Below, in pieces: positions 12,253 to 49,745 of a stretch of DNA of 64,000 nt (position 1 is its first letter; every line of letters begins with the position of its first letter). The notes beneath the pieces were generated by a model that saw only the letters and a program-made list of their open reading frames with translations, ran no database searches and was not told the DNA's origin. The stretch spans positions 675 through 64,674 of the forward strand of contig JAFGSB010000126.1 in the NCBI GenBank assembly GCA_016934825.1, read 5' to 3'. The translations under genes and the position numbers were made by a program. This stretch comes from Candidatus Zhuqueibacterota bacterium. Lineage in GTDB: Bacteria > Zhuqueibacterota > Zhuqueibacteria > Residuimicrobiales > Krinioviventaceae.

Positions 12253-13173
12253 TTAACATATATTATTCACTATCTCCTTAATACCACTAAGATTATCATC
12301 GATAGCGGCAATATGTCCACTAATATTAAATGTTTCATTAGGAGAAATATCATTCTTTAAAATCTCCCAGGCAAAATTCATTTCCAATTCATGTTTAAAA
12401 TCATCATTCAAACCAAAGCCAAGATTGTTATTCTGGCAATACAGGCCGGCAATGTGCACTATCGCGACCAAATGCCTTTCATAAATAGACGTCTCGGGCT
12501 TGTGGTGCCGGGATACCACATGAGCAATTTCACCAAAATAATTCCATTGTTCAAGCAGCCAGGGACCGAAATCCGTATGACTGATCCCTAATATTTCATT
12601 TTCCGCTTCCTCAAAATTCATATTGGTACTTTCAACCTTTTTTACCACCTTTAAAAATTCATTGGGGAAATTATGGATAAGTATAACTTCACCAATATCA
12701 TGTAACAATCCGGCAAGGTAAGCGCGTTCATGGTCTTTATATTTCAGACTTTTAGCCAATAATTTACTGACAACTGCTGTGGCAAAAGAATACTCCCAAA
12801 AGGACTTGAACAACTTTGAATTTTGGTTGTTGGAGAAATTATTGACCAAAGTTGTTGTCAGGACAACATTTTTTATCTCCTTTGACCCCAAATAAACAAG
12901 AGCCTCCCTAAGTGATTCAATTCTTCTCCCGAGTCCGAAATAGACCGAATTAACCACACGTACCATTTTGGCCGTCAGTACCTGATCCATCATAATCAGA
13001 TCAATGAGATCATCGATACTAAACTCGGGATCTTTTGTCTTGTCCAATATTTTTATTGCAACTGGAGGCAAAACGGGCAAATTTTCAATTTTACTCAAAA
13101 AGGCCAAAAGTTTTTTATCCTTCGGGTTTTGGGTATTTTGAGTATCATCCTTTTTTATGACATTTGCGATCAA
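12253..13173 (-). CDS. HDOD-domain signalling protein
   Basis: Contains LPVLPPVAIKIL...DLIDLIMMDQVLTAKMVRVVNSVYFG and GLLHDIGEVIL, the hallmark of HDOD. Last gene of the pilus operon, 29 nt after the preceding stop. Confidence 0.8.
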   Translation of the reverse strand: MIANVIKKDDTQNTQNPKDKKLLAFLSKIENLPVLPPVAIKILDKTKDPEFSIDDLIDLIMMDQVLTAKMVRVVNSVYFGLGRRIESLREALVYLGSKEIKNVVLTTTLVNNFSNNQNSKLFKSFWEYSFATAVVSKLLAKSLKYKDHERAYLAGLLHDIGEVILIHNFPNEFLKVVKKVESTNMNFEEAENEILGISHTDFGPWLLEQWNYFGEIAHVVSRHHKPETSIYERHLVAIVHIAGLYCQNNNLGFGLNDDFKHELEMNFAWEILKNDISPNETFNISGHIAAIDDNLSGIKEIVNNIC

Positions 13174-13202
13174 TTATTAACCTCACATTTTAAATTATTT
13201 TG

Positions 13203-14480
13203 TTATTCGTACCATGCAATTTTTCTTAAAGCCAGAAGCATTGGGAAAAACGGCGGTTTCATATCTTTTAACCTGGGGTCCCACTTGTAACTTTTTAGGT
13301 ACCCCATATGCGGGCTGCCAAGCTGGCCTACGGCCCCACGTGCATATTGAATCAAACCACCGTATAAACGTAAATAACCATATGTTTGTGTCCAGTAATC
13401 TTCAACATAAAAATTTCTTGAGTAGGTATAAGTCGTCGGATTCATTGTCATTATCGTCGCCTGAATGGTACGATCCTGTAAATAGTGGTTATCGGCTACA
13501 ATGACATCCCGGGTTGCGCATAAACCAACTATATCCGTTGAATGGGGATTTGTTGCCGGGTTGTCATTACATAATAAATCATCATCAATTTTAATTTTAC
13601 CTTCAGAGGCTACGGTCACCTGACCGCTAACAGTACCTTCAACATGAACCTCCGTACTTGTGGGACTGCCGGAGTAATTGGCGTAAATGACGCCGTTTGT
13701 TCCGGCTAAATTGTAAGTCGAGTATTCGCCTGCCGTTGGCGGTGTTGAATAATTCTTATGGGCTATCAAAGCCGTTGTATCGTTTTGAAATTTGATCCAG
13801 ACATACCTGTCGCTAAAAGTCGTTCCACCGGTATATGCTGCATTGACCAGATCCATAGGAATAGAATCGGGCATTTTTAATTCAGGGACAAGCCATTCGG
13901 TACCGTTATGAAACTCCGGATTAGTGGAAGAGTAGTATTTTTGGTATGGCTGCGTTGAAGAATAGACCTGATGACTGCTGACCTTACCTAAAAACACAAC
14001 CTGATTACCGGTTGTTCCGCTTATGTGAAAATATTCATTGGTGTGCACGGGACCGTGGAGTGTATCACCACCCGCAAACCAGATGTTTCCTTCATTATTT
14101 GTAAAATAAGCAAATCGTGAAAAGGATGGTCGTGTTAATAAAACGACAGTCGTATCTTTTAATCCAAGATATTCGCCGATGGACATGACTCTGATCATTG
14201 TCGGACCCAGGTACGGATCCTCAGTTCGTCTTTCAAAAGAATATGAAAATTTACCATTGCCCCATCTTACATCATTAACCGGGTCATCGGCGTCAACATC
14301 AAGCATTAACGCATTGAGGGCTGCGTTTGCACCGCTGTTGGCCAAATTACGTAATAAAATTTGGTTGTATTTATCTACATAATTCTCCATTCCCCGATGT
14401 ACCGATCCCTGTGTTTGCAATCGTAAAAACATAACACTGATCAGCAGACCCAGTACCATTATTATTGAATATTTTCCCAT
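13203..14480 (-). CDS. pilus-associated secreted/anchored protein, unknown function
   Basis: 425 aa with one N-terminal hydrophobic helix (MGKYSIIMVLGLLISVMFL). The rest is beta-rich and Thr/Tyr/Asn-rich (GPVHTNEYFHISG). Its position after two pilin-like genes suggests a minor pilin or tip factor. Confidence 0.45.
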   Translation of the reverse strand: MGKYSIIMVLGLLISVMFLRLQTQGSVHRGMENYVDKYNQILLRNLANSGANAALNALMLDVDADDPVNDVRWGNGKFSYSFERRTEDPYLGPTMIRVMSIGEYLGLKDTTVVLLTRPSFSRFAYFTNNEGNIWFAGGDTLHGPVHTNEYFHISGTTGNQVVFLGKVSSHQVYSSTQPYQKYYSSTNPEFHNGTEWLVPELKMPDSIPMDLVNAAYTGGTTFSDRYVWIKFQNDTTALIAHKNYSTPPTAGEYSTYNLAGTNGVIYANYSGSPTSTEVHVEGTVSGQVTVASEGKIKIDDDLLCNDNPATNPHSTDIVGLCATRDVIVADNHYLQDRTIQATIMTMNPTTYTYSRNFYVEDYWTQTYGYLRLYGGLIQYARGAVGQLGSPHMGYLKSYKWDPRLKDMKPPFFPMLLALRKIAWYE

Positions 14481-14503
14481 TTTTTACTCGAATATTTAAT
14501 AAA

Positions 14504-15100
14504 TTAAATACCTAACAGATTTTTGGGTGTTATCCTCATGATATACATAAATCTGGAATATTCACCCTTGAACGGTTCTTTACTTTCAATCTGCAAAGAT
14601 ACCCGGATCATTCGTATCTTGCGTAAAGAGTCAGAAACAACCGGGGTGGAAAATTCAAATCCCTGCTGGTTGTAATATTGCATTCGTAAACGTGTCAATC
14701 CAAGACTGTACCCACTGTGATTTTCTCCGTTTACCTTGCGGACAAATTTTTTATCCCTCGGATTTTCCGTGCTCGTATCCGGCGTGACAAAAATATATTC
14801 TATATGTGTTGAATCGGAAATATGGACTCCCAAAACAGCTTTGGGATTTTTATTATATGAAAATCTTATCTGCGAAGTATCAGCAAGGGTGATGGCCCTT
14901 TCAGGGCGCGTCAGACAATGGCCTATTTTACGCATTTCCCAATTCATTATATCGGCTGCTAATTTCAGATTCTCTTCCGTATGCAAATCCTGTTGAATGA
15001 AAATTGAACTGGCCTTCACACTGGTATCGACCTGTACGACAATTAATATAATCATACCGGCAATGATGAAGGAGATTATAACATCTAACATACTGTTCAT
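14504..15100 (-). CDS. pilin-like protein with non-canonical N-terminus
   Basis: 198 aa. The hydrophobic helix MNSMLDVIISFIIAGMIILIVV starts at residue ~4. No G|F/MxxxE motif. An in-frame stop 7 codons upstream of the ATG rules out a longer leader. Confidence 0.5.
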   Translation of the reverse strand: MNSMLDVIISFIIAGMIILIVVQVDTSVKASSIFIQQDLHTEENLKLAADIMNWEMRKIGHCLTRPERAITLADTSQIRFSYNKNPKAVLGVHISDSTHIEYIFVTPDTSTENPRDKKFVRKVNGENHSGYSLGLTRLRMQYYNQQGFEFSTPVVSDSLRKIRMIRVSLQIESKEPFKGEYSRFMYIMRITPKNLLGI

Positions 15101-15125
15101 ATTGATATTACCCGATAATTAAATA

Positions 15126-15629
15126 TTATTCGCTGAAAAAATAATGATATGCAAATAATTTTTTTATAATTATAGATTGCCCAACCGCTCCGGCAAAAGC
15201 TTCCGAGGAAATCGTAACACTCATTTCTTTAAAATATGTGTTGTTTGATGTTGAATTAAAAGAATTATTCGGATCGACATAATAGACAGATATATTAACA
15301 GTAAAAGGAATTGAATTTGTTAAACTATCTACAATTGTAAAATCGTTAAAATCATCAACATCATCATATGACCCGTATGATTCATTTGAGTCGGGACCAA
15401 AATTGAGAGCTGAAGTAAATGAAGCAATTGCCGAAGCAGATTTATTTTCATCAAATTTTAAAGCCTCAGCTTCTTCAATATAACGCTGCGCCGCCCCCAT
15501 TGCTTCTATATATTGCTCACTCTGATAAATAGCGGTATGGTCCTGTACCATGTGAGAGTTTAAAGTTAAAGTAAAAATGGATAACAGAACCAACGCGCCA
15601 ATTGTTAATAATGTTTCTGATGAGGCCAT
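15126..15629 (-). CDS. pilin-like protein with non-canonical N-terminus
   Basis: 167 aa, MASSETLLTIGALVLLSIFTL. Glu is residue 5 of the unprocessed protein and there is no leader peptide. Only 16 nt separate it from the upstream stop. Confidence 0.5.
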   Translation of the reverse strand: MASSETLLTIGALVLLSIFTLTLNSHMVQDHTAIYQSEQYIEAMGAAQRYIEEAEALKFDENKSASAIASFTSALNFGPDSNESYGSYDDVDDFNDFTIVDSLTNSIPFTVNISVYYVDPNNSFNSTSNNTYFKEMSVTISSEAFAGAVGQSIIIKKLFAYHYFFSE

Positions 15630-15645
15630 ATTGTAATACTATCTT

Positions 15646-18516
15646 TTAAGGTTCTTCTAAGGACAAATAAATGAATATTGTTTTTGTTGCGCTGCCATTA
15701 GGACTTTCAAGGTTAAAAGTAATTTCAGCCGTACCGGCTTTATCGTCAATCGGATCCAAATTATTCAATAAATAAGTTGAATAAAATGTGCTGCCCAAAC
15801 CGTATTTTTCCGGACTCGGCATAAATGTTGTTTGCGCCAGCCTGCCCTTGGAGCTGGATGCGGTCAGGGTTGAACCCTGCGAAACCGGGTTTCCGTTTAT
15901 GTCATAAACGCGAATACTAATTACAGCAGCCTCACCCAGTTTCAGGGAAGTTTTATCCGCGTTCACCCGGAAGCCCTGTATTTGACCGTCCGGCCAGGGA
16001 TTCGTATTCAACGGACCGCTGAATATCACGCCGCCGTAGGTATACACCATAACGGTCGAGTCGGAGTGGTCTGATTGGTGCAGGTACTGATCACAACCCT
16101 GGGTTTTGGCCAGAACAAAAGCCATTCCATCATTCTCGCCATAATTGCCAAGACTGTTAAGTACTTCCGAGCCTTCAAAATCAGGTACTTGAATATCCAG
16201 CATTAAATCGGGAGCATTGGGATTTGGTATACGGTGCGGCGCCAACACAAACGGGTCCGAAGGATTTAAATAAGGCTTTGGATTTGCGGACCTTAATATG
16301 GCCGTACCGACGCCATTAGCATCCGTTTTTACATCGGTTGTGATGATACCGGCTGTTGATGTTAAATAAACTGTTGTACCCTCCTCCACAGGATTATTAT
16401 ACCTGTCACCAACATATACTGTTACTTCATAGTCTTTGACATTGTGCCACCCATCCCGATTTATGTAATCAAAAGCAATTGTCATATGGCTTTCCACATG
16501 ATTTTTATCATTCGGATCGATCCACATATACGGCGGACCCGAACGGATCACAACATTCGCGATTCTGGCTGTAATATCATATTCTCCAACAACTTCGGCC
16601 ATAATTCGCACTGTTCCGGATCGGGTACCCGCTTTTAAAGTCGCTTTGGCCTCACCATCCACAGTTTTGATCGGGACTGATTCGGATAACGAACCATTTT
16701 TTGCAGGGAATATGGATTCACCGCCTCCGGGGCCGTTTAACAATGTAAATTTGACCGAAACATCATTCGAAACCGGTGTACCGGTTTGTGACAGCACACG
16801 TGCCGTCAGAGTTGTTTGTTCAAGATTTCCCGTTTCCTTGACCCAGATGAAATTCGGTTCGGCAGTAAGCAAGATCGTTGTCGGCTTTTCGGATGCAAAA
16901 ATAATCGGCACCGTTTTATAAAGCCCGCCATAAAAAACATTTACGTATGCAATACCGGCCTGCGATTCCGAAATTAATTCAGCCTTGGCGGTTCCCAAAA
17001 CATCCGTTGTTGCCTGATTGGGGATAGAACCTAAATTCGAATTAAAATTAACAACGGCATAGGGAATTACATCTTTTGTCGTCGTTAATTTGAGCTGAAC
17101 AGTTATAACAGATGAAGCAATGCCGTCGGCCTGTATTGAATCCGGATTCGCGGATACCTGCATGGAAACCCCAAGCAGATCAATCGGTAAAGTTGTTGTC
17201 ATCGTACCAAATGTCGCCGTTATCACATCCCGGGCATCAACAGAGTCTGCATCGGAAATATAATCAACTTCAGCCTGACCGTTTTCATCGGTTATGGCGA
17301 CACTGTCCACCACTCCGTAATTCGCCTTGAATCGGAGTTTTGTGTCTTTAACCGGATTTTGCTGGTCGTCTAAAAGTGTTGCGGTTAACTTTACTGCCGA
17401 AATACCATTCCGGATAACCACCTGGTTACCGGTCAATGAAAATAAAGTCTGTCCCGCCGATTCTACAAAAGATATTTGCGCAGTATCGGACACATTATAA
17501 AAACTGGATATAACCTGAACATTGGGATTTGCCGAACTGCCGCTCACCAGATCGGCCAATGCGTCACCTTTCTCATTTGTTACCGCGGTTGCGGTTATAG
17601 AACCGTCCGAGGTTATAAAATTTACATTTGCACCCACTATCGGATTATTTTTATGAGTAGTCAATCTTGCTGTCATCACTAATTTGCTTTTTCCGTCGGC
17701 GGACAATTGCGCAATTTCGGGAAACAAATTCAGTTTGGGAGTCACATAGCTCAATAAGATTTGTTTACTTTCAAAGGTCCCATAATCAATAAATATCGTA
17801 TCATCGATTGCCCTGGTCAAAGAAACCAGATCAACGGCGGCTACCCCCCTCTCAGATGTTTTTAATTGGCCAGGAACCGTATTATATATTGCTCTTAAAA
17901 ATATATCGGCCCCGGGTACCGCCTTCTTACTTACGGTTTCTTTAATAACAACTTCAAGTTTGGCGGTATTAATTCCATCAGCCGGTATATCCTTTTGATC
18001 AATTACAGCCGTTAAGGTCACTCCGATAAATTTAATATCGATTGTAGCGGTATCTGAGGCATCTCCGGACACTTTTTTCAACTTTTCTGTCTGAGAAAAA
18101 TTTTTCACTTTCAGCACAACTTTATGTTTATCCGGAATTTTTTTGTTCAACGAACTGCTGTCCTGAATGGTCGCCGTAACGGTTACATCAAGGTCCACAT
18201 CACTTGCTACACTGGTCAAAATTGCAGTCGTTTCACCCAAAACATTAGAAATCGAATAAGATGTTATAGAACCATGGTTTGTTGTAAAATTGACTCTTAC
18301 TCCTTGGGCCGGATATCCGCTTGTATCATAAACTACGGCAATAATTGAGGCGGTAGAAATTCCATCGGCAATTAACCAGGGTTCCTGATCATCAATCTCA
18401 ATTTTTTCAATCCTGTTTGGTCCTACAACTTTATCATCATCTTTACCACATTGTATCATAAAGAAAAAGCCCAACACCATGAAAATTGAAAAAATTAATT
18501 TATGATTTATCTTCAT
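15646..18516 (-). CDS. large lipoprotein with tandem bacterial Ig-like (Big_1, invasin/intimin-type) domains
   Basis: 956 aa with a lipobox (FFFMIQ|CGKDDD). At least 6 repeats follow the Big_1 pattern ADG.s...v.a.v.D..g.P..g..V.F....G.i......Td..G.A.a.l.s. Confidence 0.75.
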   Translation of the reverse strand: MKINHKLIFSIFMVLGFFFMIQCGKDDDKVVGPNRIEKIEIDDQEPWLIADGISTASIIAVVYDTSGYPAQGVRVNFTTNHGSITSYSISNVLGETTAILTSVASDVDLDVTVTATIQDSSSLNKKIPDKHKVVLKVKNFSQTEKLKKVSGDASDTATIDIKFIGVTLTAVIDQKDIPADGINTAKLEVVIKETVSKKAVPGADIFLRAIYNTVPGQLKTSERGVAAVDLVSLTRAIDDTIFIDYGTFESKQILLSYVTPKLNLFPEIAQLSADGKSKLVMTARLTTHKNNPIVGANVNFITSDGSITATAVTNEKGDALADLVSGSSANPNVQVISSFYNVSDTAQISFVESAGQTLFSLTGNQVVIRNGISAVKLTATLLDDQQNPVKDTKLRFKANYGVVDSVAITDENGQAEVDYISDADSVDARDVITATFGTMTTTLPIDLLGVSMQVSANPDSIQADGIASSVITVQLKLTTTKDVIPYAVVNFNSNLGSIPNQATTDVLGTAKAELISESQAGIAYVNVFYGGLYKTVPIIFASEKPTTILLTAEPNFIWVKETGNLEQTTLTARVLSQTGTPVSNDVSVKFTLLNGPGGGESIFPAKNGSLSESVPIKTVDGEAKATLKAGTRSGTVRIMAEVVGEYDITARIANVVIRSGPPYMWIDPNDKNHVESHMTIAFDYINRDGWHNVKDYEVTVYVGDRYNNPVEEGTTVYLTSTAGIITTDVKTDANGVGTAILRSANPKPYLNPSDPFVLAPHRIPNPNAPDLMLDIQVPDFEGSEVLNSLGNYGENDGMAFVLAKTQGCDQYLHQSDHSDSTVMVYTYGGVIFSGPLNTNPWPDGQIQGFRVNADKTSLKLGEAAVISIRVYDINGNPVSQGSTLTASSSKGRLAQTTFMPSPEKYGLGSTFYSTYLLNNLDPIDDKAGTAEITFNLESPNGSATKTIFIYLSLEEP

Positions 18517-18555
18517 TTTGATAACCTACTTTTCAAATAATAACATTCATTTACA

Positions 18556-20145
18556 TCAGACACCGGTTTTTATCTTGATAACGATTAAATCACCCGGTCT
18601 AACGTCCCCTTTAATTTTATGTGCAATTGTCCGGTCATATTTTGTCTGTTGAATCAAAACATAACCAACCTGAATGGGTTTTTTGTTACCGTTTAACCTG
18701 ACAGTAGAAAACCTTTTTCCGAATAATTTCTGAGTATTAAAATTCTGTTTCCACTTGATTAATACAATATTATCTTCAACAGATATTACATTTCCGAGAT
18801 AATAGTTAGCGGATTCGATCGTTTTTTCCGGATTCATAACCGGGGTGGCCTGGGCTCTGGGTTGTGGAACATAGGTTTTTTTCTCGATAGCCTTGTTAAC
18901 CGGCTTTGGCTTTGGCGTATATGTGTTACTCACCTCGCGTTTTGGAATGCCGGGTTCAATAGTTCCTTTTTTGAATTTTTCTAATTTGAGTTCCGCATCA
19001 GGATCCCATAAATTTTGATTATTGGGATAATTTTTTCTATCAAAAACATCGGGTAAAATTGATGCTTTAAGAATTATGATCAATTCCTTTTGTGACGTTT
19101 CAGTCCGGTTATACCCGAACAGATAACAAAGACCAAAAAACCAGGGGGGTAAATCTTTTAAAAGAGGCAGTCCTTTTCGTAAATTGGTTTTTTCGGTATT
19201 ATACAATCCCGCAATGAGTGTCTCTTCACCGTCAAATAATTGTATATAAGAATTGGCTTCGGATTTGTTAATAATCGTACTGACGACATCGGGTGTCGCC
19301 TGACTACGCTCAACATGGGCTTTAAGTAAAATGGCTTCGTTTTTATCATCATCCATAATAATATAGGGTGTAACCTGCAATATAGTACCGGTACTGAAAA
19401 ATCTGTCAATCAGGTTACCGGCAAAATCTCTAGTTTTAATTGAAAAATCCTGACCAACCTGAATTTTGCCTTCATTGCCTTCTGTTACCACGACCTGGGG
19501 CTGGGCAAGTACCTTGCCGATATTTTTCGAATCGAATATACTGAGCAATGCGCGAATATCAACATCAAATGTTTTGCTGGGAATCTTGACCGACAGATCA
19601 AAAAAGCTTTCATTGACAGAGAGCGCTCCCATTTGATCGGATGACATTGTGACTTTACCATTGTAAAAAGAACTCCAGTCGAGACCAATTTCGGAAATTG
19701 CTTTCCTGTCGCCTTCGAAAAAAATTGTCTCAATTTTAATTTCCTTGCTGCCCGGTCTCAGATTAATTTCATCCGGAATATTAGTGGAACCGTTAGAAAT
19801 GGTTGACGTGTTTGTCGGATAAACGATCTGAAAAAAATGTTCTTTTTCTTCATACCACAGACCTCGGGCGCTTAATATTATTTGCAAAGCTTTTTCCCAT
19901 TGTAAAGCATCTACATCTATACCTACAGAGCCTTTTTGTTTTGTCGGATCAAAAATAGGCTTGTTGGCGAACTGTATAGAGTATTCACTCAGAATATTCA
20001 TGGCGTCCTGAAATTCTAATTGACCGTTAATAGAACAGAGCTCTTCTGGTGGAGTATACTCGCGCGGAAACCGTTCCTGGGAAAAACAGGGCAAGGAAAT
20101 AAAAATAATGAGCAAATAAAGAATTGTAATTTTTAATTTTTTCAT
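18556..20145 (-). CDS. pilQ: secretin (PilQ/GspD family) with 165-aa C-terminal extension
   Basis: Signal peptide followed by a secretin core (VLAQPQVVVTEGNEGKIQVGQD, LPLLKDLPPWFFGLCYLFGYNRTETSQKELIIILKASI). A Pro/Lys-rich linker and an extra beta-rich domain follow. Confidence 0.8.
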   Translation of the reverse strand: MKKLKITILYLLIIFISLPCFSQERFPREYTPPEELCSINGQLEFQDAMNILSEYSIQFANKPIFDPTKQKGSVGIDVDALQWEKALQIILSARGLWYEEKEHFFQIVYPTNTSTISNGSTNIPDEINLRPGSKEIKIETIFFEGDRKAISEIGLDWSSFYNGKVTMSSDQMGALSVNESFFDLSVKIPSKTFDVDIRALLSIFDSKNIGKVLAQPQVVVTEGNEGKIQVGQDFSIKTRDFAGNLIDRFFSTGTILQVTPYIIMDDDKNEAILLKAHVERSQATPDVVSTIINKSEANSYIQLFDGEETLIAGLYNTEKTNLRKGLPLLKDLPPWFFGLCYLFGYNRTETSQKELIIILKASILPDVFDRKNYPNNQNLWDPDAELKLEKFKKGTIEPGIPKREVSNTYTPKPKPVNKAIEKKTYVPQPRAQATPVMNPEKTIESANYYLGNVISVEDNIVLIKWKQNFNTQKLFGKRFSTVRLNGNKKPIQVGYVLIQQTKYDRTIAHKIKGDVRPGDLIVIKIKTGV

Positions 20146-20155
20146 AACGTACCAC

Positions 20156-21151: not shown

Positions 21152-21152
21152 A

Positions 21153-22730: not shown

Positions 22731-22739
22731 GATTAAAAC

Positions 22740-23945
22740 TTAATTTAATAATTCCTGAATTCTTTTTTTATTGTTTGCATAATTGACGGCAACCTGTTCT
22801 GAAATTTTTCCCATTTTGGCTAACCTGGTCAGATCCTGTTCCAATGTATGCATACCTAATTTTCCCCCCTCGGCAATCATCTGATATATTTCGGTAATAT
22901 TCTTGTTGCGGATCGCCGCCCGGACTGAACTGGTTACCAGCAACACTTCTTTGGCAAGGATTAATTTTTGATCCAAAGCCGGCACAAGCTTTTGGGAAAT
23001 AACGACTCTTAGCTGATCAGCCAAACGCACACGAACACGATCCTGTTCATTAGTCGGACATTCGGCAACAATTCTGTCAATTGTTTCAACTGCCGAACCC
23101 GTATGCAGGGTTGAAAATACTTTATGACCGGTATCGGATATTTCCAGACACGTCATAATTGTTTCCGGATCACGCATTTCACCCACAACAATGATATCCG
23201 GGTCCTGCCGTAATGATTGAACGGCACCATCTTTGAATGATAACACATCTCTGCCAACTTCACGATGCCTGATGATACACTTTTTCGATTTATGAATAAA
23301 TTCAATCGGATCTCCGATGATGACAATATGACCATTGACCGTCTGGTTGTTCGCGTCAACAATACTGTCCATAGTGGTGCTTTTACCGGATCCGGTAATA
23401 CCGGTCAGCAAAACAAGCCCCTGTTTTTCGTGTGCCAGTGAAAGATAAAGAGAAATATTGGGATGAAATCCCAACTTTTTATAGGGATAGACATCCGAGG
23501 CGATCGAGCGCATATTTAATGCCAGGTGGCCAAGATCGACATACAAACTTGATCTCCAGCGTAAAACGTGTTCGTCATTTTTCATATTAAATGAAAAATC
23601 GACAACCCGATTCTTTAACATCAACTCCGCCTGTTTTGGCGAAATTAATGAAAGACATAATATATCGGTTTGATCGACATTCCAAAAACCCAGTTCATGT
23701 CGGGGAATCTTTTTACCCTGCACCCGGAACCAGACATAATTTTGAGAGGTATAGCCGCCCAGTTCAATATCTGAAGCGTTGAGTTTACGCATCACAAGTA
23801 AAAATTCTTTGTACTTGTTTTGTAAAATATAAATTTCCTGGGGTGTCAATTGTTGCAGGCCGTCATTCATATATTTCAGCCTGTCCAAACCTTCAACATG
23901 CTTGGGAATTTGTGATAAAATTTTTGTAAAAATTGATTCTAACAT
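22740..23945 (-). CDS. pilT: PilT-family retraction ATPase with ~55-aa N-terminal extension
   Basis: Walker A GITGSGKSTTM, Asp box VVGEMRDPETI, His box TGHKVFSTLHT, ASDIELGG. Confidence 0.85.
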   Translation of the reverse strand: MLESIFTKILSQIPKHVEGLDRLKYMNDGLQQLTPQEIYILQNKYKEFLLVMRKLNASDIELGGYTSQNYVWFRVQGKKIPRHELGFWNVDQTDILCLSLISPKQAELMLKNRVVDFSFNMKNDEHVLRWRSSLYVDLGHLALNMRSIASDVYPYKKLGFHPNISLYLSLAHEKQGLVLLTGITGSGKSTTMDSIVDANNQTVNGHIVIIGDPIEFIHKSKKCIIRHREVGRDVLSFKDGAVQSLRQDPDIIVVGEMRDPETIMTCLEISDTGHKVFSTLHTGSAVETIDRIVAECPTNEQDRVRVRLADQLRVVISQKLVPALDQKLILAKEVLLVTSSVRAAIRNKNITEIYQMIAEGGKLGMHTLEQDLTRLAKMGKISEQVAVNYANNKKRIQELLN

Positions 23946-23947
23946 AA

Positions 23948-24919
23948 TTATTTCATATTGTAATCAGTTACATAGCGTTCTTCCAATTCTCTGGCTTTGT
24001 GATAATTTATTATTTCCAGAGGATCAATGGAAAAATGCATGTCGTTAAAATATCGATTTTCAATTTTTGTTACGATTGAACGAATTCTGGTAATATTATT
24101 TTGAATACTTTCCGCTCTTTCAAGATAAGATTGTCCTTGTTCCTTTAACAAAAGTTCCGCGTTCACCGAAATAATTGTCAATGGATTATTCATTTCATGC
24201 TGTAATGTTCTTAAAATAGTATCGACAAATATTTGTTTTTCTTGAAATAATTTTTTATTGCACGAATCTACCAGGTCGGTATTTTTTTTGTTTATTTCTT
24301 TATTCAACCAATAAAGTTCACTATTTTGATTATGTAATGTCATAGCCAGAAATGATGATATAAAATAAACCAGGAAAAACAAACAGACATAAGACAGCAG
24401 GGTAACAGAATTTTTCTGAGTGAATACAATCAACTCTCTGGAAAATTCAACACTGAACAGTGTTATGTCCTTATATTCAGTCAGAAATAATACCATAAAC
24501 AAACAGACAACACTTAGAAAACTGGCCCATAATCCAGGGCCCTTACCGGCGGTGATACTGGATGTTAAAATGGGAATTAAATACAGCCAAATCAACGGGC
24601 TCGCCGGACCATCGGTCAAATAAATGACCATTGAAAAAATCAAAATATCCAGTAAATTATGTAAAAGAATATACAGCATCTTGAACTTGAAAGTATTCAG
24701 CAAAAAACTGTATATTATGTTCAGCAGCATGATAGTAACTAAAGTATAAATAAAATTATTTTGAGGAAAATTCTTTTGTTTTATGGCCATTTGTATTATA
24801 CCAACGGACAAAAAGCTGATTGTGGAAAACCAGCGTACATAATTCCACCATTGAAGCGCATTGGTAAAATTCTTGTTATTCATGGTGTCAACAACCGGAT
24901 TAATTTTATTTTTTCGCAA
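23948..24919 (-). CDS. membrane histidine-kinase-like protein with DHp (HisKA) domain but no catalytic ATP-binding domain
   Basis: About 6 TM helices, a coiled coil and an H-box LQHEMNNPLTIISVNAELL. The protein ends ~70 aa later without N/G1/G2 boxes. pilT starts 3 nt after its stop, so no room remains for a catalytic domain. Start uncertain (TTG 24919 or ATG 24883). Confidence 0.6.
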   Translation of the reverse strand: MRKNKINPVVDTMNNKNFTNALQWWNYVRWFSTISFLSVGIIQMAIKQKNFPQNNFIYTLVTIMLLNIIYSFLLNTFKFKMLYILLHNLLDILIFSMVIYLTDGPASPLIWLYLIPILTSSITAGKGPGLWASFLSVVCLFMVLFLTEYKDITLFSVEFSRELIVFTQKNSVTLLSYVCLFFLVYFISSFLAMTLHNQNSELYWLNKEINKKNTDLVDSCNKKLFQEKQIFVDTILRTLQHEMNNPLTIISVNAELLLKEQGQSYLERAESIQNNITRIRSIVTKIENRYFNDMHFSIDPLEIINYHKARELEERYVTDYNMK

Positions 24920-24985
24920 TACTTTTAACCCCTCTTAATAAAGTCAAAAGTTAATAAATTAATATATCGCCTAATCTACCTGAGC

Positions 24986-25858
24986 TCAATTTAGCCTGAC
25001 TTCTTCATTCATTCGTGCGATACGTTCACAGGTTACCATAAATTTTTTAGTCATACTCAATATGGTGTTCACTGCAAAACGGAACGCAAAATTTTTGTTT
25101 TCCTGCAAATACTTTGCTATTTCATTTCTATTGATTACTAATAATTCAAATTCTTCTTCCGATTTTAATACCAGCAAAAATTTAGTCTGACCGGATAAAA
25201 ATACGGACGTTTCACCAATGGCATCTCCGGCTTTATAGTAACCGATTATACTGTTCTGATACCAGCAGGCCATACTTCCATGAGTTATGATGACCAACTC
25301 TTTGGTCACATCCATAACATGATTATCGCCCACCGCAATTTTTTTCCGCTCACCTAAAGCCATTAACTCTTTAATATTTTTATCGGGTATATTGGCAAAA
25401 ATATTAAAATTAAAATGTAAATCACTTTCAAAATTTTCTTTACTCATTTGGGTTGCTATAGTCGCAGATTCCGGCTTTTTATGCTTTGAAGTGGACTCCC
25501 GGTTAAAAAATTTATTTATATTGTCAACCAAATTCTTTGCTAAACCGGGTTTAGTAACAAATTCATTAGCCCCCGCTTTTATCGCCTTTTGAGAAAAATT
25601 TTGTCCGCTAAAACCTGTGAATGCTATTATATAAGTATTGGATGATTTAGATCGTAAATTACTGATAATATCAAGTCCATTCATTCTACCGGGTAAAACA
25701 AGGTCTATAAGCGCCAGATCAAAATTTTTGTCACCGCTTTTTGCCTGAGCATCGTCCCCATCAGCTGCACATACCACTTCATAACCTTCCATTCGCAGCA
25801 GTTCGGCTGATGTTTCCCGTAACTCCTTTTCATCATCGACAATTAAAATATTATACAT
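24986..25858 (-). CDS. response regulator: receiver + cyclic-nucleotide-binding-like domain
   Basis: MYNILIVDDE...LALIDLVLPG...IIAFTG...FVTKP receiver. The C-terminal beta-roll is cNMP-like (GDAIGETSVF...). ATG at 25858 is preceded by GAGGT. The longer track start overlaps pilB. Confidence 0.7.
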   Translation of the reverse strand: MYNILIVDDEKELRETSAELLRMEGYEVVCAADGDDAQAKSGDKNFDLALIDLVLPGRMNGLDIISNLRSKSSNTYIIAFTGFSGQNFSQKAIKAGANEFVTKPGLAKNLVDNINKFFNRESTSKHKKPESATIATQMSKENFESDLHFNFNIFANIPDKNIKELMALGERKKIAVGDNHVMDVTKELVIITHGSMACWYQNSIIGYYKAGDAIGETSVFLSGQTKFLLVLKSEEEFELLVINRNEIAKYLQENKNFAFRFAVNTILSMTKKFMVTCERIARMNEEVRLN

Positions 25859-25878
25859 ATTTACCTCATAATATAATT

Positions 25879-27663
25879 TTATTCCATTGTTGCAGCAGCA
25901 ACTTCTTCCATGCACGCCCGGCCTTCAATAACCCTCCTTCGTGCGGATGCCCGCAAGGTTATCATACCATATTTCAAGGCACTTTCCCTAATCGAATCTT
26001 CATCCAGCTCACCGGACGCCGACAAAATTAATTTTCTTATTTCCGGCGTAAAGGGTAATACTTCATGGATCGCAACACGACCCGCAAAGCCTTTTTTACA
26101 ACTGTCACATCCTACAGGTTTATAAAAAGTGTGTGTCGTTATTTCCTGTTCCGTAAATCCAAGTGATAGCGCATAATCTTTATCAATATTGGTAATTTGC
26201 TTTTTACATTTATTGCATAGCGTTCGCATTAATCGCTGCGCGACAACAAGGTTAATGGCGTAGGCGATTAAAAAAGGTTCAATATCCATTTTAAACAATC
26301 TGGAAATAACACTCACAGCATCGTTTGTGTGTAATGTAGAAAAAGTTAAATGCCCTGTATTGGCCAGTTTAATTCCGATTTCAGCAGTTTTTGTATCCCG
26401 AATCTCACCTACCATAACGATATCGGGGTCGTGTCGTAAAATCGAACGAATTGCCTGGTCAAAATTCATTTTATTACTGATCTTTAGCTGACGCGCCCCT
26501 TTTATATTATATTCAACCGGATCCTCAACCGTTAACACATTCAATTCGGGTGACATAACCTGGTGCAGTGCCGCAACCAGAGTGGTACTTTTACCGCTAC
26601 CGGTCGGTCCGGTCAATATGACCATTCCCTGGGGTTTCTTTATGGCCTTGAGAAATTCTTCTTTGGCAAAACCATCAAATCCAAGTTTTGCCAGATCCGT
26701 AATTACCTTCCTGTCATCAAGAACACGAATAACAACACTTTCATATTTCCGGGTAAAGGCGCTCGAAACGATAGGCAAAATGGAAACCCTGAATCGAATA
26801 AGATAATGATCAACTTCACGCTGAATAAAACCGTCCTGGGCCACATCCCATTCAAAACGGTCAACGTTACGGGTTCTATCCTTAACAACCGCCAGAAAAG
26901 CTTCCGGTTTTACGCCATCCTGTTTATGCCATAAAGCCAAACGTCCATCGACCCGAAAATGAATTTCGGTAATGTTACCCTCTTTGGGTATGATATGAAT
27001 ATCACTGGCGCCCTTATGCACAGCTTCAATTAAACATCCCTCGAAAAGATTAACCAGCAGGCTTTTATTAATAGCGGCGGTAAGTTCATCTTCATCAAGA
27101 CCCTTTTCTTCATCTTCATCGTCGATATAAGATAATTCGTCGGTGACCTCTTTTAAATTTTCCAGAAATTGATTCTCATTGGGCAGCGCCTTGTGTAATA
27201 TTTCTTCAACATCTTCCAGCTTGCCGTAGGATAGTTCAAATCTTTTGAAACCTGCCTGCCTGATCACCCGGTCAATTTCACGATCTGTCGGATCGGGCGT
27301 GATAAATATTGTTATTTCATTATTCTTTTCACTATATCCGAAGGGGAGAATTTTTTTATCAACAAAAGAATCCTGACTCGATTGCGGCAACGATTCATAC
27401 ATGTCACGTATAAATTTCAGCCATCCTTCGGAAACCGATGTGCCGTCTATTTTAATCTCCCGGAAAGCATATACTCTGCAAAACGCCTGATAAACTTTGT
27501 GCCGGTCATAACCCAGCTCTTTGATTAAAACATTTTCCAGACTTTGTTTTTTATCGGATTTCGCAACAATTTCATACGCTTTATTCAGGTCGGTTTTTGT
27601 AAACAGACCTTCATTTGTCAGCATTTCAACAACGGTATTTGGTATGTGTGAATTTACAATCAT
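25879..27663 (-). CDS. pilB: PilB/GspE-family assembly ATPase
   Basis: Walker A GPTGSGKSTTL, VGEIRD, TGHLTFSTLHT, and a tetracysteine motif CNKC...CDSC. Confidence 0.9.
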   Translation of the reverse strand: MIVNSHIPNTVVEMLTNEGLFTKTDLNKAYEIVAKSDKKQSLENVLIKELGYDRHKVYQAFCRVYAFREIKIDGTSVSEGWLKFIRDMYESLPQSSQDSFVDKKILPFGYSEKNNEITIFITPDPTDREIDRVIRQAGFKRFELSYGKLEDVEEILHKALPNENQFLENLKEVTDELSYIDDEDEEKGLDEDELTAAINKSLLVNLFEGCLIEAVHKGASDIHIIPKEGNITEIHFRVDGRLALWHKQDGVKPEAFLAVVKDRTRNVDRFEWDVAQDGFIQREVDHYLIRFRVSILPIVSSAFTRKYESVVIRVLDDRKVITDLAKLGFDGFAKEEFLKAIKKPQGMVILTGPTGSGKSTTLVAALHQVMSPELNVLTVEDPVEYNIKGARQLKISNKMNFDQAIRSILRHDPDIVMVGEIRDTKTAEIGIKLANTGHLTFSTLHTNDAVSVISRLFKMDIEPFLIAYAINLVVAQRLMRTLCNKCKKQITNIDKDYALSLGFTEQEITTHTFYKPVGCDSCKKGFAGRVAIHEVLPFTPEIRKLILSASGELDEDSIRESALKYGMITLRASARRRVIEGRACMEEVAAATME

Positions 27664-27675
27664 AACTTATATTCC

Positions 27676-29022
27676 CTACATTCCCATTCCAGGCATTTTA
27701 GGTGAAAATACTGCGGTTTCCGATGATACAACTGTCAACAAAGTCATGACAAGCATGATGATCAAAGCAACGAAAACCTGTATCCAATCGACAATTGCCT
27801 GCATTTTGTATTTAGATTCTTTTTCATAATACCGCGCTATCTGCAAACTTACCTTTTTTAACGTACCGGATTCGGCGCCGGTATTAAAACGAGTTAGCGC
27901 ATTTTCTGTAAATATATCCGCCTGTTTGAGCGATTCGACAAATCCTTTTCCTTCCCGTACCATCATCGGTATGGTCACTTCCTTGATCCGTTTTTCCATA
28001 TATTTGTTACGGCACGCTTCGGCGGCAGTCCGTATGACCTCGATATTTTCACCCGAGCCGCTGTACATGGAATTGAATACACGGCAAAAAATTTCAATTG
28101 ACGTCTTGTGTAATATCGGCCCGATGATCGGCATTTTTATTGAAAACTTTCCAACAATAATCTGCCCCTTTTTTGTTAAAGCAAGCCGGAACAAAATAAG
28201 CGGCGGAACAAGCAATATTAATACAATCCAGATAATATTCCCTGTCAGGAAATGACTTAAATCCAGACTGGCCTGGGTCATTGGTGGTAATTCTGCGCCA
28301 AAGCTGGCAAACATTTCAGCCGTTTCCGGGAAGATATAACCGATATAAAAAATAACAGCTCCCAATAATACAAACATTGTAATCGAAGGCATTAATAATG
28401 CGCTGCGAATACTCTTTTTAAATTCATGGACCCTTTCCAGGAATATGGCCGTATTCTCATATACCTCGGCCATATTACCGCTCTTGGAAGCCACGCCCAG
28501 CATTTTCGCGGGAAATTTTCCAAGGAAATTGGCCTGTTTGTTAAAGACCTCTTCCCCGTCTTTACCATCTTTTAAATCATTCAGAATTTCTTTAATGATT
28601 TTTTTCATTGATTTATTTGAAATGTCGGTTTCAAGCAAAGTCAATATTTCATCAAAAGGGAGTTTTTCGCGCAGTAAATCCGCGGATAATCTTATAAAAG
28701 TAATTACATCACCCTGCGGGGGCTTCATCCGGAAATCAATTAAACTTTTTTCAACATGTACATCGTCAAATCCCATTCGCCGGAGAGCAAGTTCCACTTC
28801 TTCTTTTGAATAGGCTTCCTGTTCACCCCGTATCAATTGACCGGCCTGTTTACGTACTTTGTACAAATAGACAGACTTTTTTTGTATGGAAGAAAGTGTA
28901 AAACCCTTCTGGCGTGAGAGCAAAGCAATTCTGGATTTTGCTTCGTTTTTATTTTTTACCTCAATATAGCCAGTAATTCTTTTTTGTTGCGGGGTTAAAC
29001 CTGTATAACGAAATTCTGCCAT
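27676..29022 (-). CDS. pilC: PilC/GspF-family platform protein
   Basis: Two GspF-type repeats with 3 TM segments. The start MAEFRYTG at 29022 is preceded by caaggaagaaag. The track extension to 29082 reads through a terminator hairpin. Confidence 0.85.
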   Translation of the reverse strand: MAEFRYTGLTPQQKRITGYIEVKNKNEAKSRIALLSRQKGFTLSSIQKKSVYLYKVRKQAGQLIRGEQEAYSKEEVELALRRMGFDDVHVEKSLIDFRMKPPQGDVITFIRLSADLLREKLPFDEILTLLETDISNKSMKKIIKEILNDLKDGKDGEEVFNKQANFLGKFPAKMLGVASKSGNMAEVYENTAIFLERVHEFKKSIRSALLMPSITMFVLLGAVIFYIGYIFPETAEMFASFGAELPPMTQASLDLSHFLTGNIIWIVLILLVPPLILFRLALTKKGQIIVGKFSIKMPIIGPILHKTSIEIFCRVFNSMYSGSGENIEVIRTAAEACRNKYMEKRIKEVTIPMMVREGKGFVESLKQADIFTENALTRFNTGAESGTLKKVSLQIARYYEKESKYKMQAIVDWIQVFVALIIMLVMTLLTVVSSETAVFSPKMPGMGM

Positions 29023-29050
29023 CTTTCTTCCTTGAATTAAAAAACTGATT

Positions 29051-29080
29051 AAAAAAAGGGCCCAAAAAAATGCTGGGCCC
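29051..29080 (-). terminator. intrinsic terminator/attenuator between the pilin-like gene and pilC
   Basis: Minus strand reads GGGCCCA-gcattttt-TGGGCCC followed by TTTTTTT, a 7-bp GC stem plus T7 run. It sits 170 nt after the pilin stop and 28 nt before the pilC ATG. Confidence 0.6.
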
Positions 29081-29250
29081 ATGTTTACTCTAGAACATAC
29101 CGTGGTTACCTTGACGTATGGAACTTTTGTCTAAACCAGGTTCAGTTATACCTGCAATATACAAGTAAGTACAATTTGTAAAATGATACTAATCATTCAG
29201 CCCAACTTGCTTATTCAAAGACAATAATGTGTAAATTATTGGTCAATCGA

Positions 29251-29679
29251 TTATGCTCCAGCAGCTACTTTGGTTATTGCAGTTGTAGTAATACTGTTCG
29301 GTCCAATAGTCATCTGTACCTGACATACCTGACCATCTTTGTCCTTGTAAGAACCAACGCCTTGTAATGTAACGGCATCGCCCGAGCCCGCGGTGGAAAT
29401 AGTGAAAGTTCCATTTTCGTTTGTGTAAGATGTAGCACCAATTGCAACCGGTGTCATGTGATGCATTCCCAGACCATCAAATTGATTACCGCCGCCGCCC
29501 ATTCCGGTGGGTTTTACATAATATTGCTGCGCACGAGCTGACATGTTCATTAGATCATTAATTACGGCTTCCTGATTCGAAGCTGCAGCCGATGTACCAA
29601 ATGTTTGTATACCGACCACTACTGCGATACCAACAATGATAACGCTTAAAACGATGAGTAAAAGTTGCTGTTGACCCAT
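29251..29679 (-). CDS. major pilin-like protein with non-canonical N-terminus
   Basis: 142 aa, MGQQQLLLIVLSVIIVGIAVVVGIQTF, then a small Gly/Thr-rich globular part. Strong RBS (aaaggag). An in-frame TAA 5 codons upstream fixes the start. First gene of the pilus operon and followed by a terminator. Confidence 0.6.
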   Translation of the reverse strand: MGQQQLLLIVLSVIIVGIAVVVGIQTFGTSAAASNQEAVINDLMNMSARAQQYYVKPTGMGGGGNQFDGLGMHHMTPVAIGATSYTNENGTFTISTAGSGDAVTLQGVGSYKDKDGQVCQVQMTIGPNSITTTAITKVAAGA

Positions 29680-29757: not shown

Positions 29758-29772
29758 TCAAACATTATGCCA
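29758..29772 (-). promoter_or_regulatory. weak sigma54-like -24/-12 element upstream of the pilin-like gene
   Basis: Minus strand TGGCAT-aatgt-TTGA, ~78 nt upstream of the ATG. GG spacing is correct, but the -12 element is GA rather than GC. Confidence 0.25.
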
Positions 29773-47264: not shown

Positions 47265-47307
47265 CCAGATTAATCCTCACAGAAGTAATAAATCTGTGAG
47301 GATTTTC
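47265..47307 (+). repeat. copy 2 of the 43-nt hairpin repeat; probable terminator of the minus-strand orp-like operon
   Basis: ccagattaaTCCTCACAGAagtaataaaTCTGTGAGGAttttc. My alignment to copy 1 gives 34/43 identical. Two substitutions in the left arm are matched by compensatory ones in the right arm. Lies 16 nt downstream of the stop at 47323. Confidence 0.65.
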
Positions 47308-47322
47308 ATAAAAATATTGTTT

Positions 47323-47742: not shown

Positions 47743-47759
47743 TTCCTATACTCCTTTTA

Positions 47760-49577: not shown

Positions 49578-49612
49578 AAAAAGATCCATTCTCAATTTCG
49601 TTTAACAGTAAT

Positions 49613-49735
49613 TCAATGACGGGGACCTCTCCACGCCACGCCGGAATTCAGGCATACAAAATCAAAGCAACGGCATATATAACCGGTTTTCAGTAGTTTA
49701 GCAATTTTTTCACTTTGATATTCGTATTCCTGCAT
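49613..49735 (-). CDS. candidate 40-aa Cys-containing small ORF (not in the ORF track)
   Basis: Manual translation gives MQEYEYQSEKIAKLLKTGYICRCFDFVCLNSGVAWRGPRH*. The ATG is preceded by agaaagag at -5. It fills the 150-nt gap between the radical SAM and ATPase genes. Confidence 0.3.
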   Translation of the reverse strand: MQEYEYQSEKIAKLLKTGYICRCFDFVCLNSGVAWRGPRH

Positions 49736-49745
49736 ATTACTCTTT

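Follow-up and report, generated by a model that had tools for sequence, protein, structure and literature searches.

A type IVa pilus-like operon encoding pilin-like subunits without class III signal peptides in Zhuqueibacterota and related candidate phyla

Known type IV filament systems and the Zhuqueibacterota locus

A class III signal peptide, together with the prepilin peptidase that removes it, is treated as a defining and universal feature of bacterial pili, type II secretion systems (T2SS), and archaella, and pilin-finding tools as well as the MacSyFinder/TXSScan models rely on class III signal features. Canonical mature pilins carry a glutamate at position 5 (Glu5), and Met is accepted as the +1 residue. 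Here we analyze a 64,000-nucleotide stretch of DNA from a Candidatus Zhuqueibacterota bacterium (assembly GCA_016934825.1, contig JAFGSB010000126.1, positions 675 to 64,674 of the forward strand; the whole stretch is henceforth called the window), which carries a 14-gene operon with components like those of a type IVa pilus (T4aP). In this operon, a PilB/PilT/PilC/PilM machine and a secretin are joined, in a linkage conserved between lineages, to leaderless subunit genes that have an N-terminal motif of their own. We consider it probable that the operon encodes a T4aP-like retractile filament machine whose subunits are made already mature, without a class III signal peptide.

Fused PilM/N-type components, which are found in this operon, also occur in the mannose-sensitive hemagglutinin (MSH) pilus. 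A locus free of a peptidase gene is not unusual in itself, since MSH loci also lack one (PMC6668835); MSH pilins, however, keep the class III signal peptide and borrow the PilD of a co-resident system (PMC6668835), whereas here the signal peptide itself is missing. Among described systems, the Bacteroidetes "T2SS," which branches with T4aP and not with T2SS (Denise et al. 2019; PMC6668835), may be the closest relative. This system (PMC5553014; PMC6668835) shares with the window locus its origin in a lineage of the Fibrobacterota-Chlorobiota-Bacteroidota (FCB) group, its organization in one cluster (CHU_3191-3201 of Cytophaga hutchinsonii), a very divergent major pilin, and PilM/N/O/P-like proteins detectable only through remote homology. 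In contrast, the gene descriptions of Wang et al. (2017; PMC5553014) give the Cytophaga cluster a Peptidase_A24 gene (CHU_3197), a GspG-like pilin, and no PilT; in the window locus, no A24 peptidase was seen and PilT is present. Literature searches on leaderless or peptidase-independent pilins, the string MGQQQLLL, and pili of KSB1/Zhuqueibacterota or Caldithrix recovered no description of the present system, and the KSB1/Zhuqueibacterota genome papers found do not mention pili.

The major pilin-like subunit has no leader peptide

We number the genes of the operon g1 to g14 in the direction of transcription. The first of them encodes the candidate major subunit.

29251..29679, minus strand: g1, major pilin-like subunit, 142 aa, N terminus MGQQQLLLIVLSVIIVGIAVVVGI; leaderless start, AlphaFold (AF2) model, family logo

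Two signals fix the start of g1, namely, a ribosome-binding site (AAGGAG) that ends 6 nt short of the ATG and an in-frame TAA five codons upstream, so that no leader peptide is possible. A ribosome-binding site along with in-frame stops 2 to 8 codons upstream was likewise present in 13/13 orthologous pilin genes examined, and a mis-called start codon was ruled out on these grounds. The g1 family comprises 3,952 proteins (E <= 1e-3 in a 90%-identity collection), which form 2,171 clusters at 50% identity, 1,474 of them at E <= 1e-10; nearly all members align from their own residue 1, and some are labeled "PilE" in IMG. A logo of 137 representatives has Met1 in all 137, Gly2 in 134, Gln3 in 113, Gln4 in 128, and Gln5 in 136, followed by Leu6, Leu7, and Leu8, with further conserved positions at Gly17 (123), Gly23 (125), and Phe27 (126). 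The family consensus is thus M-G-x-Q-Q-L-L-L, and M-G-x-Q-Q is the exact start of 133 of the 140 homologous open reading frames (ORFs) in 98 related loci. The mean frequency of the top residue per column is 0.93 for positions 1 to 27, 0.76 for positions 28 to 67, and 0.50 for the C-terminal part; judged from the alignment, this conserved N terminus and variable C terminus form the pattern seen in pilins.

The initial annotation of this locus had stated that none of its four pilin-like proteins (g1, g11, g12, and g13) has the G|(F/M)xxxE class III signal. This is correct, and the four proteins have leaderless starts with a motif of their own; what that annotation missed is the main point, namely, that the pilins have no leader at all and carry a near-invariant N-terminal motif instead. 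A match to the N-terminal methylation model TIGR02532, which it had named as an outcome that would speak against it, did not materialize: none of the four proteins matched even at E <= 10, and a canonical PilA used as a positive control scored 40.1 bits (cutoff, 16.3).

The AF2 model of g1 (31 sequences; mean predicted local distance difference test [pLDDT] score, 84.9) has a helix at residues 3 to 55 (53 residues) followed by a five-stranded β-sheet, giving a lollipop shape. The pilin fold is generally described as a hydrophobic N-terminal helix of ~50 residues packed on an antiparallel sheet; Foldseek gave the g1 model no significant pilin match among PDB structures. The top Foldseek matches were unrelated proteins, with ComZ at E = 2; we treat this null result as uninformative rather than negative because Foldseek handles helix-plus-small-sheet pilins poorly. 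At the sequence level, g1 has no significant match in Pfam or PDB. Its profile weakly matched Geobacter PilA (E = 0.33), and a comparison with seven canonical pilins by hhalign gave E = 0.0023 at a probability of 12.5%; these two independent weak alignments both pair Gly17, Phe27, and Asp42-Leu43 of g1 with the canonical Gly14, Phe24, and Asp39-Leu40. The identification of g1 as a pilin therefore draws on architecture, conservation pattern, and genomic context, since the homology is not significant.

Two further observations concern the globular part of g1. Directly after the N-terminal helix, residues 57 to 67 (window ~29479-29511) form a near-invariant K-P-x-x-M-G-G-G-G-N-x-F motif, in which P57 and G62-G64 are invariant in the 31-sequence alignment and for which we know of no counterpart in canonical pilins; the alignment has no Cys pair and no D-region. 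Four relatives (P0156, P0168, P0176, and P0237), 376 to 581 aa in length, contain 3 to 5 tandem copies of the pilin globular region and start with an ordinary signal peptide or a lipoprotein-like N terminus, not with MGQQQ, so the head domain occurs also outside the filament context.

Minor pilin-like proteins and the associated lipoprotein

Three further proteins with an N-terminal pilin-like helix and a large lipoprotein are encoded toward the end of the operon.

15126..15629, minus strand: g11, minor pilin-like protein, 167 aa, N terminus MASSETLLTIGALVLL; Glu5 counted from Met1
14504..15100, minus strand: g12, minor pilin-like protein, 198 aa, N terminus MNSMLDVIISFIIAG; conserved Leu-Asp at positions 5-6 in orthologs
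13203..14480, minus strand: g13, large minor pilin-like protein, 425 aa, N terminus MGKYSIIMVLGLL; no acidic residue, GspK/PilX-like pattern
15646..18516, minus strand: g10, Big_1/invasin-type lipoprotein, 956 aa; five Big_1 stretches (E = 2e-45)

The leaderless design is common to g1, g11, g12, and g13: none of these four subunit families has a class III signal peptide, and the hydrophobic helix starts at the initiator Met. Orthologs of g11 begin M-[G/A/S]-x-x-[Q/E/D]-x-L-L, with Q, E, D, or N at position 5, and the window copy begins MASSE, with Glu5 counted from Met1; position 5 from Met1 is hence a conserved polar residue in both g1 (Gln) and g11 (Q/E/D). Orthologs of g13 begin MG[KR]xxII without an acidic residue, and GspK and PilX are among the canonical minor subunits that lack one there. 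Database searches with these proteins gave little: g11 had no match in Pfam or NCBIfam and nothing meaningful against PDB profiles; g12 weakly matched NF007848 (prepilin peptidase-dependent protein; E = 0.0033, below the cutoff), with an empty PDB profile search; and g13 weakly matched DUF4900 (E = 4e-5, below the cutoff), with only spurious Fab light-chain matches among PDB profiles. The three genes accompany the machine even where the gene order differs, and g11 lies between PilB and PilT in many other lineages.

In every g10 ortholog, the signal peptide ends with a Cys and acidic residues come directly after it, an arrangement that resembles the surface-export signal of Bacteroidota; g10 is a candidate surface adhesin associated with the minor subunits.

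As a separate observation on copy number, the KSB1 loci L013 (10228-12915) and L014 (12199-15347) have two successive g11/g12-like sets each, a second g13-like gene is present in L099, and g1 paralogs stand in tandem, up to four of them, in several loci. Duplication of the subunit genes is thus frequent.

Conservation and distribution of the operon

A scan of one genome per GTDB species with the g7 alignment as the query recovered 14 loci, including records titled "candidate division KSB1," in which the gene order is the same wherever the contigs are long enough, down to 35% g7 identity. A metagenome scan with the pilin alignment gave at least 600 pattern matches and at least 379 confirmed relatives, of which the best 80 were kept; among these 80, ~30 long loci have the order 1-4 tandem pilins, PilC, PilB, [g11-g12-g13], PilT, PilM-N, PilO-P, and secretin. 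Pilins starting with MGQQQLLL occur beside PilC/PilB in metagenome-assembled genomes (MAGs) labeled Calditrichaeota (L018), Calditrichia (L101), Coatesbacteria (L099), Latescibacterota (L100, partial), and "Bacteroidota" (L016/L017). In every case, the pilin gene comes first, in 1-4 tandem copies immediately ahead of pilC-pilB, and PilT is a conserved core gene across lineages. A complete 6.5-Mb chromosome (OY843751.1; L005) also carries the operon.

Because the order recurs in the 14 genome loci and the ~30 long metagenome loci, the arrangement is not due to chance. KSB1, Calditrichota, Coatesbacteria, and Latescibacterota, the labels under which it is found, are FCB-related candidate phyla. 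The check proposed in the initial annotation, a look for the same gene order in related MAGs, did find it, and the earlier suggestion of a distinct FCB-type filament or secretion system gains support from the conservation of the package as a distinct type in these phyla. That suggestion had also listed a giant adhesin-like lipoprotein and signaling proteins as embedded in the locus. They are indeed present, but not as core parts: the Big_1 lipoprotein, the PilS-like and receiver (REC) proteins, and the HDOD protein are lineage-variable accessories, and g10 has moved or is absent in other lineages.

Search for a prepilin peptidase

The initial annotation had stated that the window contains no prepilin peptidase, and no A24 peptidase was seen among its ORFs, which were read by eye, with selected ORFs scanned against Pfam. 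A regular-expression (regex) scan of the 98 related loci (935 kb) likewise recovered no credible canonical G|FxxxE N terminus and no A24 GxGD[x]K motif; the matches that it did return, including one in a MATE-like transporter, were rejected as spurious. No Peptidase_A24 is present among the called genes of L099-L101, which brings the related loci to 101 in all.

Published gene counts bear on the rest of the genomes. In Table S7 of Li et al. (2022; PMC9012183), K02654 (pilD) is found in 0/6 clade I and 1/12 clade III KSB1 genomes, and both K02654 and K02278 (tadV) are 0 in GCA_002085355.1 (4484_87) and GCA_001771235.1 (RBG_16_48_16). These two genomes carry the operon (loci L014 and L008, respectively), and their zero counts support peptidase independence without proving it.

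Layout of the operon and its machine components

All 14 ORFs of the operon lie on the minus strand (window 29679-12253) in the 5'-to-3' order g1, PilC, PilB, REC (g4), PilS-like (g5), PilT, g7, g8, secretin, g10, g11, g12, g13, and HDOD. Domains were assigned by Pfam and NCBIfam profile scans of the operon proteins; no model in either database covers g1, g7, g8, g11, or g12, and g13 has the sub-cutoff DUF4900 match alone. The machine components are as follows.

27676..29022, minus strand: g2, PilC platform protein, 448 aa; PF00482 (T2SSF), two stretches
25879..27663, minus strand: g3, PilB-type assembly ATPase, 594 aa; PF00437 (T2SSE), E = 1e-100
22740..23945, minus strand: g6, PilT retraction ATPase, 401 aa; PilT/PilU family TIGR01420, AIRN motif
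21153..22730, minus strand: g7, PilM-PilN fusion, 525 aa; AF2 and Foldseek for PilM, topology for PilN
20156..21151, minus strand: g8, PilO/PilP-like bitopic protein, 331 aa; position and topology
18556..20145, minus strand: g9, secretin, 529 aa; PF00263, E = 7e-26, with PilQ as the best NCBIfam model, below the cutoff

Most of what the initial annotation said of the layout stands. The 14 genes are co-directional and in the order it gave; most intergenic gaps, put there at 1-40 nt apart from that between g1 and pilC, are 1-39 nt, except that g4 and g5 are 66 nt apart. The g1-pilC gap measures 228 nt if pilC starts at 29022, and the attenuator placed in it is present as a strong hairpin at 29080-29058. 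The longest ORF of pilC starts at 29082, and the most likely true start is the ATG at 29022, which is where the gene is called on L001, a near-identical Logan contig. The phrase "atypical composition," if read as base composition, has to be given up: the GC content is 0.34-0.44 across the locus, versus ~0.39 in the window, and a horizontally acquired island was rejected because the GC content of the locus resembles that of its flanks.

The motor and secretin parts were said to be clearly T4aP/T2SS-like, and the T2SSF, T2SSE, PilT/PilU, and Secretin profile matches confirm this. Among NCBIfam models, g2 scores highest with PilC and GspF and reaches the cutoff of neither. For g3, the best one is the T4aP PilB model TIGR02538, at 414 bits (equivalog cutoff, 676), compared with 369 bits for GspE and 52 bits for the TadA-family model; its sequence also contains a Cys-x2-Cys ... 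Cys-x2-Cys motif. The g6 ATPase just passes the cutoff of TIGR01420 (319.6 versus 319.1 bits).

The g7 protein has no Pfam or PDB sequence match, and a member-by-member Pfam scan of its alignment gave noise. In an AF2 model built from the 29-ortholog alignment (pLDDT, 77), residues 1 to 333 form an actin-like domain, which is followed by a transmembrane (TM) helix, a coiled coil up to residue 453, and a small β-β-α-β-β domain. The top Foldseek matches of the model are PilM structures of Pseudomonas aeruginosa (5EOU), Myxococcus xanthus (3JC8), and Thermus thermophilus (2YCH), with E values from 2e-14 (5EOU) to 2e-11, and these rank above FtsA and EpsL/GspL (E ~1e-6 for EpsL/GspL). The modeled structure thus confirms the PilM identity, whereas the name PilN for the C-terminal part is plausible from topology, because a TM helix, a coiled coil, and a small domain make up the PilN layout. 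The "PilM-N fusion" label proposed earlier accordingly holds for PilM on structural grounds (Foldseek E down to 2e-14), with no sequence support, and for PilN on topology only.

In an 11-ortholog alignment, g8 has an N-terminal TM segment and two conserved parts, a core and a C-terminal β domain, joined by a variable linker. It has no Pfam match, a member-by-member Pfam scan of the alignment gave noise, and the weak matches recovered were to the DotF C terminus (E = 0.09) and, in one member, to PilN (E = 0.22). Its position and topology suggest a PilO/P-like protein.

The C-terminal ~165 residues of the secretin g9 (window 18556-19050) are a lineage-specific extension beyond the secretin domain, with a faint S28e/KOW-like match as its sole hit; it is absent from the 411- to 444-aa orthologs of other lineages.

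Regulatory elements and signaling proteins

The operon contains three signaling genes and two noncoding elements around g1.

29758..29772, minus strand: sigma-54-type promoter-like motif, TGGCATAATGTTTGA; 93 nt upstream of the g1 ATG
29051..29080, minus strand: intrinsic terminator/attenuator between g1 and pilC, GGGCCCAGCATTTTTTTGGGCCC followed by T7; 8 pairs, 6 of them G-C
24986..25858, minus strand: g4, response regulator with a C-terminal cNMP (cyclic nucleotide)-binding-like domain, 290 aa from the ATG at 25858; Response_reg, E = 1e-24
23948..24919, minus strand: g5, PilS-like sensor with six TM segments and a DHp (HisKA) domain only, 323 aa; PF25323 (6TM_PilS) and PF00512
12253..13173, minus strand: g14, HDOD-domain protein, 306 aa, last gene of the operon; PF08668, E = 7e-60

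The pattern TGGCAY-N5-TTGM occurs within 250 nt upstream of 24 of the 135 pilin starts in the related loci, against a background of 0.0066 per 250 nt, and in L018 and L099 the gene immediately before that of the pilin encodes a PilR-like sigma-54 activator; the motif upstream of g1 is therefore a putative sigma-54 promoter. The terminator hairpin is the best-scoring terminator-like site of the locus.

The start of g4 is taken from the L001 gene call; its cNMP_binding match is weak (E = 0.0015, below the cutoff), and the REC proteins at this position differ in number and type among lineages. A Pfam scan of g5 for HATPase_c found none, and its H-box reads HEMNNP. Orthologs of g5 (300-329 aa) are present in L002-L005, L009, L013, L014, and L018 and absent from L010, L011, and L015. 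The PilS of P. aeruginosa is a sensor of membrane-located PilA, and the phosphatase activity of HisKA domains resides in an ExxN/T motif beside the His; on these two grounds, g5 may sense the membrane-located pilin and dephosphorylate its neighbor, the REC protein g4. The last gene, g14, is kept at the same position in L002-L005.

Divergent from the operon (window 30273-31835, plus strand), and sharing a 593-nt intergenic region with g1, lies a gene for a 520-aa protein with Response_reg and PglZ domains. L002, L004, and L005 each have a homolog in the corresponding divergent position, and the protein may be part of the operon's regulatory set.

Comparison with type IVa pili and other members of the superfamily

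The motor core (PilB, PilC, PilT, PilM-N, and the secretin) is clearly T4aP-like and lies inside the known superfamily. With the T4aP of P. aeruginosa, M. xanthus, and T. thermophilus, the locus shares (i) PilB, PilT, PilC, PilM, a putative PilN/O/P-like set, and a PilQ-type secretin; (ii) a major subunit gene in first place, equipped with a terminator of its own and a sigma-54-type motif and not far from a gene for a PilS-like sensor; and (iii) minor subunits beside a large nonpilin adhesin candidate, as PilY1 is found beside minor pilins. It differs from them in that (i) the subunits lack the class III signal peptide and Gly-1/Phe+1/Glu+5 and do not match the N_methyl model; (ii) no PilD is linked to the operon; (iii) PilM is fused to a PilN-like part, and PilO and PilP are probably fused as well; (iv) the genes form a single operon, as opposed to several loci; (v) the PilS-like protein lacks the kinase catalytic domain; and (vi) PilB, PilC, and the secretin are all below the curated equivalog cutoffs. 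Of the components by which T4aP are recognized, PilB, PilT, and PilC with PilQ are present and the class III pilin is absent. The system thus works like a T4aP and lacks the subunit feature by which T4aP and the type IV filament superfamily are defined.

As in the GspL of T2SS, g7 combines a cytoplasmic actin-like domain, one TM segment, and a small periplasmic domain in one chain; in contrast to T2SS, PilM structures match it better, PilT is present, and no GspC, GspM, or GspG-K model matches. From Tad/Flp systems (type IVc pili), the locus is set apart by its ATPase (52 bits for TadA versus 414 for PilB), a single two-domain PilC, and the lack of an Flp-like motif. The ATPase and platform model scores, along with the presence of PilT, ruled out membership in Tad, Com, or MSH. 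The initial annotation was hence right that the package does not match the textbook T4aP, T2SS, Tad, or Com layouts: the subunits lack the class III signal, PilT is present, and the ATPase scores 52 bits with TadA.

Proposed mechanism and alternative explanations

The absence of a class III signal peptide leads us to propose that the subunits are made already mature. They would insert into the inner membrane and be taken up by PilC/PilB without prepilin-peptidase cleavage or N-methylation, and the filament would be polymerized from g1. Gln5 of g1 and Gln/Glu/Asp5 of g11 would take the place of the canonical Glu5; specifically, the salt bridge between Glu5 and the N-methyl amine would give way to an uncharged Gln5 together with an N terminus that is unmethylated and may be formylated or Met-trimmed. 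The machine would both extend (PilB) and retract (PilT) a T4aP-like filament, with g8 completing the alignment complex as a PilO/P-like protein. The g11-g13 proteins would prime or cap the filament as a priming/tip complex, on which, in this lineage, the Big_1 lipoprotein g10 would probably be presented as an adhesin. Transcription of g1 may start at the sigma-54-type promoter and be uncoupled from that of the machine genes by the terminator.

Several points weigh against this proposal. To our knowledge, no filament has been observed, and no cultured organism carries the operon. None of g1 and g11-g13 has a significant sequence or structure match to known pilins (Foldseek for g1, hhalign, and PDB profiles), and the weak profile alignments place the canonical +1 at Gln4 and not at Met1, so that the register of the subunits is ambiguous. 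The near-invariant Gly2 would also fit a minimal Met-Gly leader cut after the Gly. Processing by an unlinked peptidase may occur, given that MAGs are incomplete and KOfam may miss a divergent peptidase. Finally, the PilO/P assignment of g8 draws on sub-threshold matches and is unproven.

The best-surviving alternative, which we nevertheless regard as unlikely, combines two of these points: a two-residue Met-Gly leader would be removed after the Gly by an unlinked A24 peptidase, and the system would be an ordinary T4aP whose pilins have Gln at +1 and lack Glu5. Canonical prepilin peptidases require a single residue, Gly at -1, and besides the 134 of 137 g1 representatives with Gly2, g11 and g13 mostly begin M-G and g12 begins M-S, M-N, or M-G. 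In several g11 and g12 orthologs, however, position 2 is H, N, Q, or M, and we know of no precedent for an uncharged two-residue leader. Such a cut would leave no conserved polar residue at +5 or nearby, whereas counting from Met1 yields Gln5 in 136/137 g1 representatives and puts the Q/E/D of g11 exactly at position 5. A peptidase could be borrowed, as it is by MSH and other loci without one of their own (PMC6668835), and some KSB1 clades do encode pilD (PMC9012183); the two operon-carrying KSB1 MAGs discussed above, on the other hand, have no K02654 or K02278 match, and no A24 gene is present in the 101 loci (98 scanned by regex and L099-L101 by gene tables).

We consider it decidedly unlikely that the locus encodes a T2SS-like exporter, in which g1 and g11-g13 would form a short pseudopilus that pushes the Big_1 lipoprotein or glycan-degrading enzymes through the secretin, in the manner of the Bacteroidetes "T2SS." The large exported lipoprotein encoded in the operon would suit such a role; however, its gene is absent or located elsewhere in many lineages. 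Likewise, the GspE and GspF models score nearly as high as those of PilB and PilC, and g7 has a GspL-like fused architecture with EpsL/GspL among its Foldseek matches (E ~1e-6), but PilM structures rank above GspL, and PilT, which T2SS lack, is a conserved core gene here. The grouping of the Bacteroidetes "T2SS" with T4aP and its very divergent major pilin (PMC6668835; PMC5553014) would make an exporter of this kind conceivable, yet the described Cytophaga cluster has an A24 peptidase and no PilT (PMC5553014). The features of g1 also speak against an exporter: its tandem diverging copies (1-4), variable C terminus, own terminator, and sigma-54-like motif together form the pattern of surface-exposed major pilins.

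That g1 and g11-g13 are ordinary bitopic membrane proteins (anchors or regulators), with true, canonical pilins encoded elsewhere, agrees with their lack of significant homology to pilins and is still hardly credible, as g1 occupies the major-pilin position in strict linkage to pilC-pilB in every lineage examined, has a lollipop-shaped AF2 model and a pilin-like conservation pattern, and belongs to a set of four families with an N-terminal assembly-helix-like segment, as in sets of pilins and minor pilins, and as the regex scan recovered no canonical prepilin in 935 kb of related loci.

Other features of the window

Outside the operon, we noted several further features. A 626-aa protein (5179-7059, plus strand) unusually fuses GH130 (the beta-1,4-mannooligosaccharide phosphorylase family) to a C-terminal receiver domain; nearby are a second GH130-like ORF (8083-9012, minus strand) and a large glycosyltransferase-like ORF (8969-11248, minus strand). 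The stretch at ~47300-53400 is GC rich (0.47-0.50 versus ~0.38 for the window) and may be an acquired island. One of its proteins (611 aa) combines two P-loop domains of the MinD/ParA type with several 4Fe-4S motifs; also present are small ORFs resembling NifX/DUF134 and one resembling radical-SAM proteins. A PAS-sigma-54 activator encoded there (51974-53353) is the sole sigma-54 enhancer-binding protein in the window. A 1,254-aa protein (56330-60094, minus strand) appears from its sequence to be Ser/Thr kinase-like with a tetratricopeptide repeat-rich region. Two paralogous GAF-containing sensors (53950-55380 and 61679-63103, both on the minus strand) differ in that HATPase_c is present in one, whereas no kinase domain could be detected in the other.

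Implications

We see the chances as evenly balanced that this system is the first type IV filament lineage without a class III signal peptide and prepilin peptidase, and one widespread in several FCB-related candidate phyla. Met1 would then be the +1 residue, and an invariant Gln5 with an uncharged or unmethylated N terminus would stand in for the pair of Glu5 and N-methyl amine, which is regarded as essential for the extraction and packing of subunits. Current annotation misses such pili entirely because no Pfam or NCBIfam model matches their subunits. The system would offer a natural experiment on the roles of leader cleavage, N-methylation, and Glu5 in filament assembly. KSB1, Calditrichota, and related phyla are abundant in sediments and bioreactors, and the operon points to surface adhesion, motility, or DNA uptake in these uncultured lineages.

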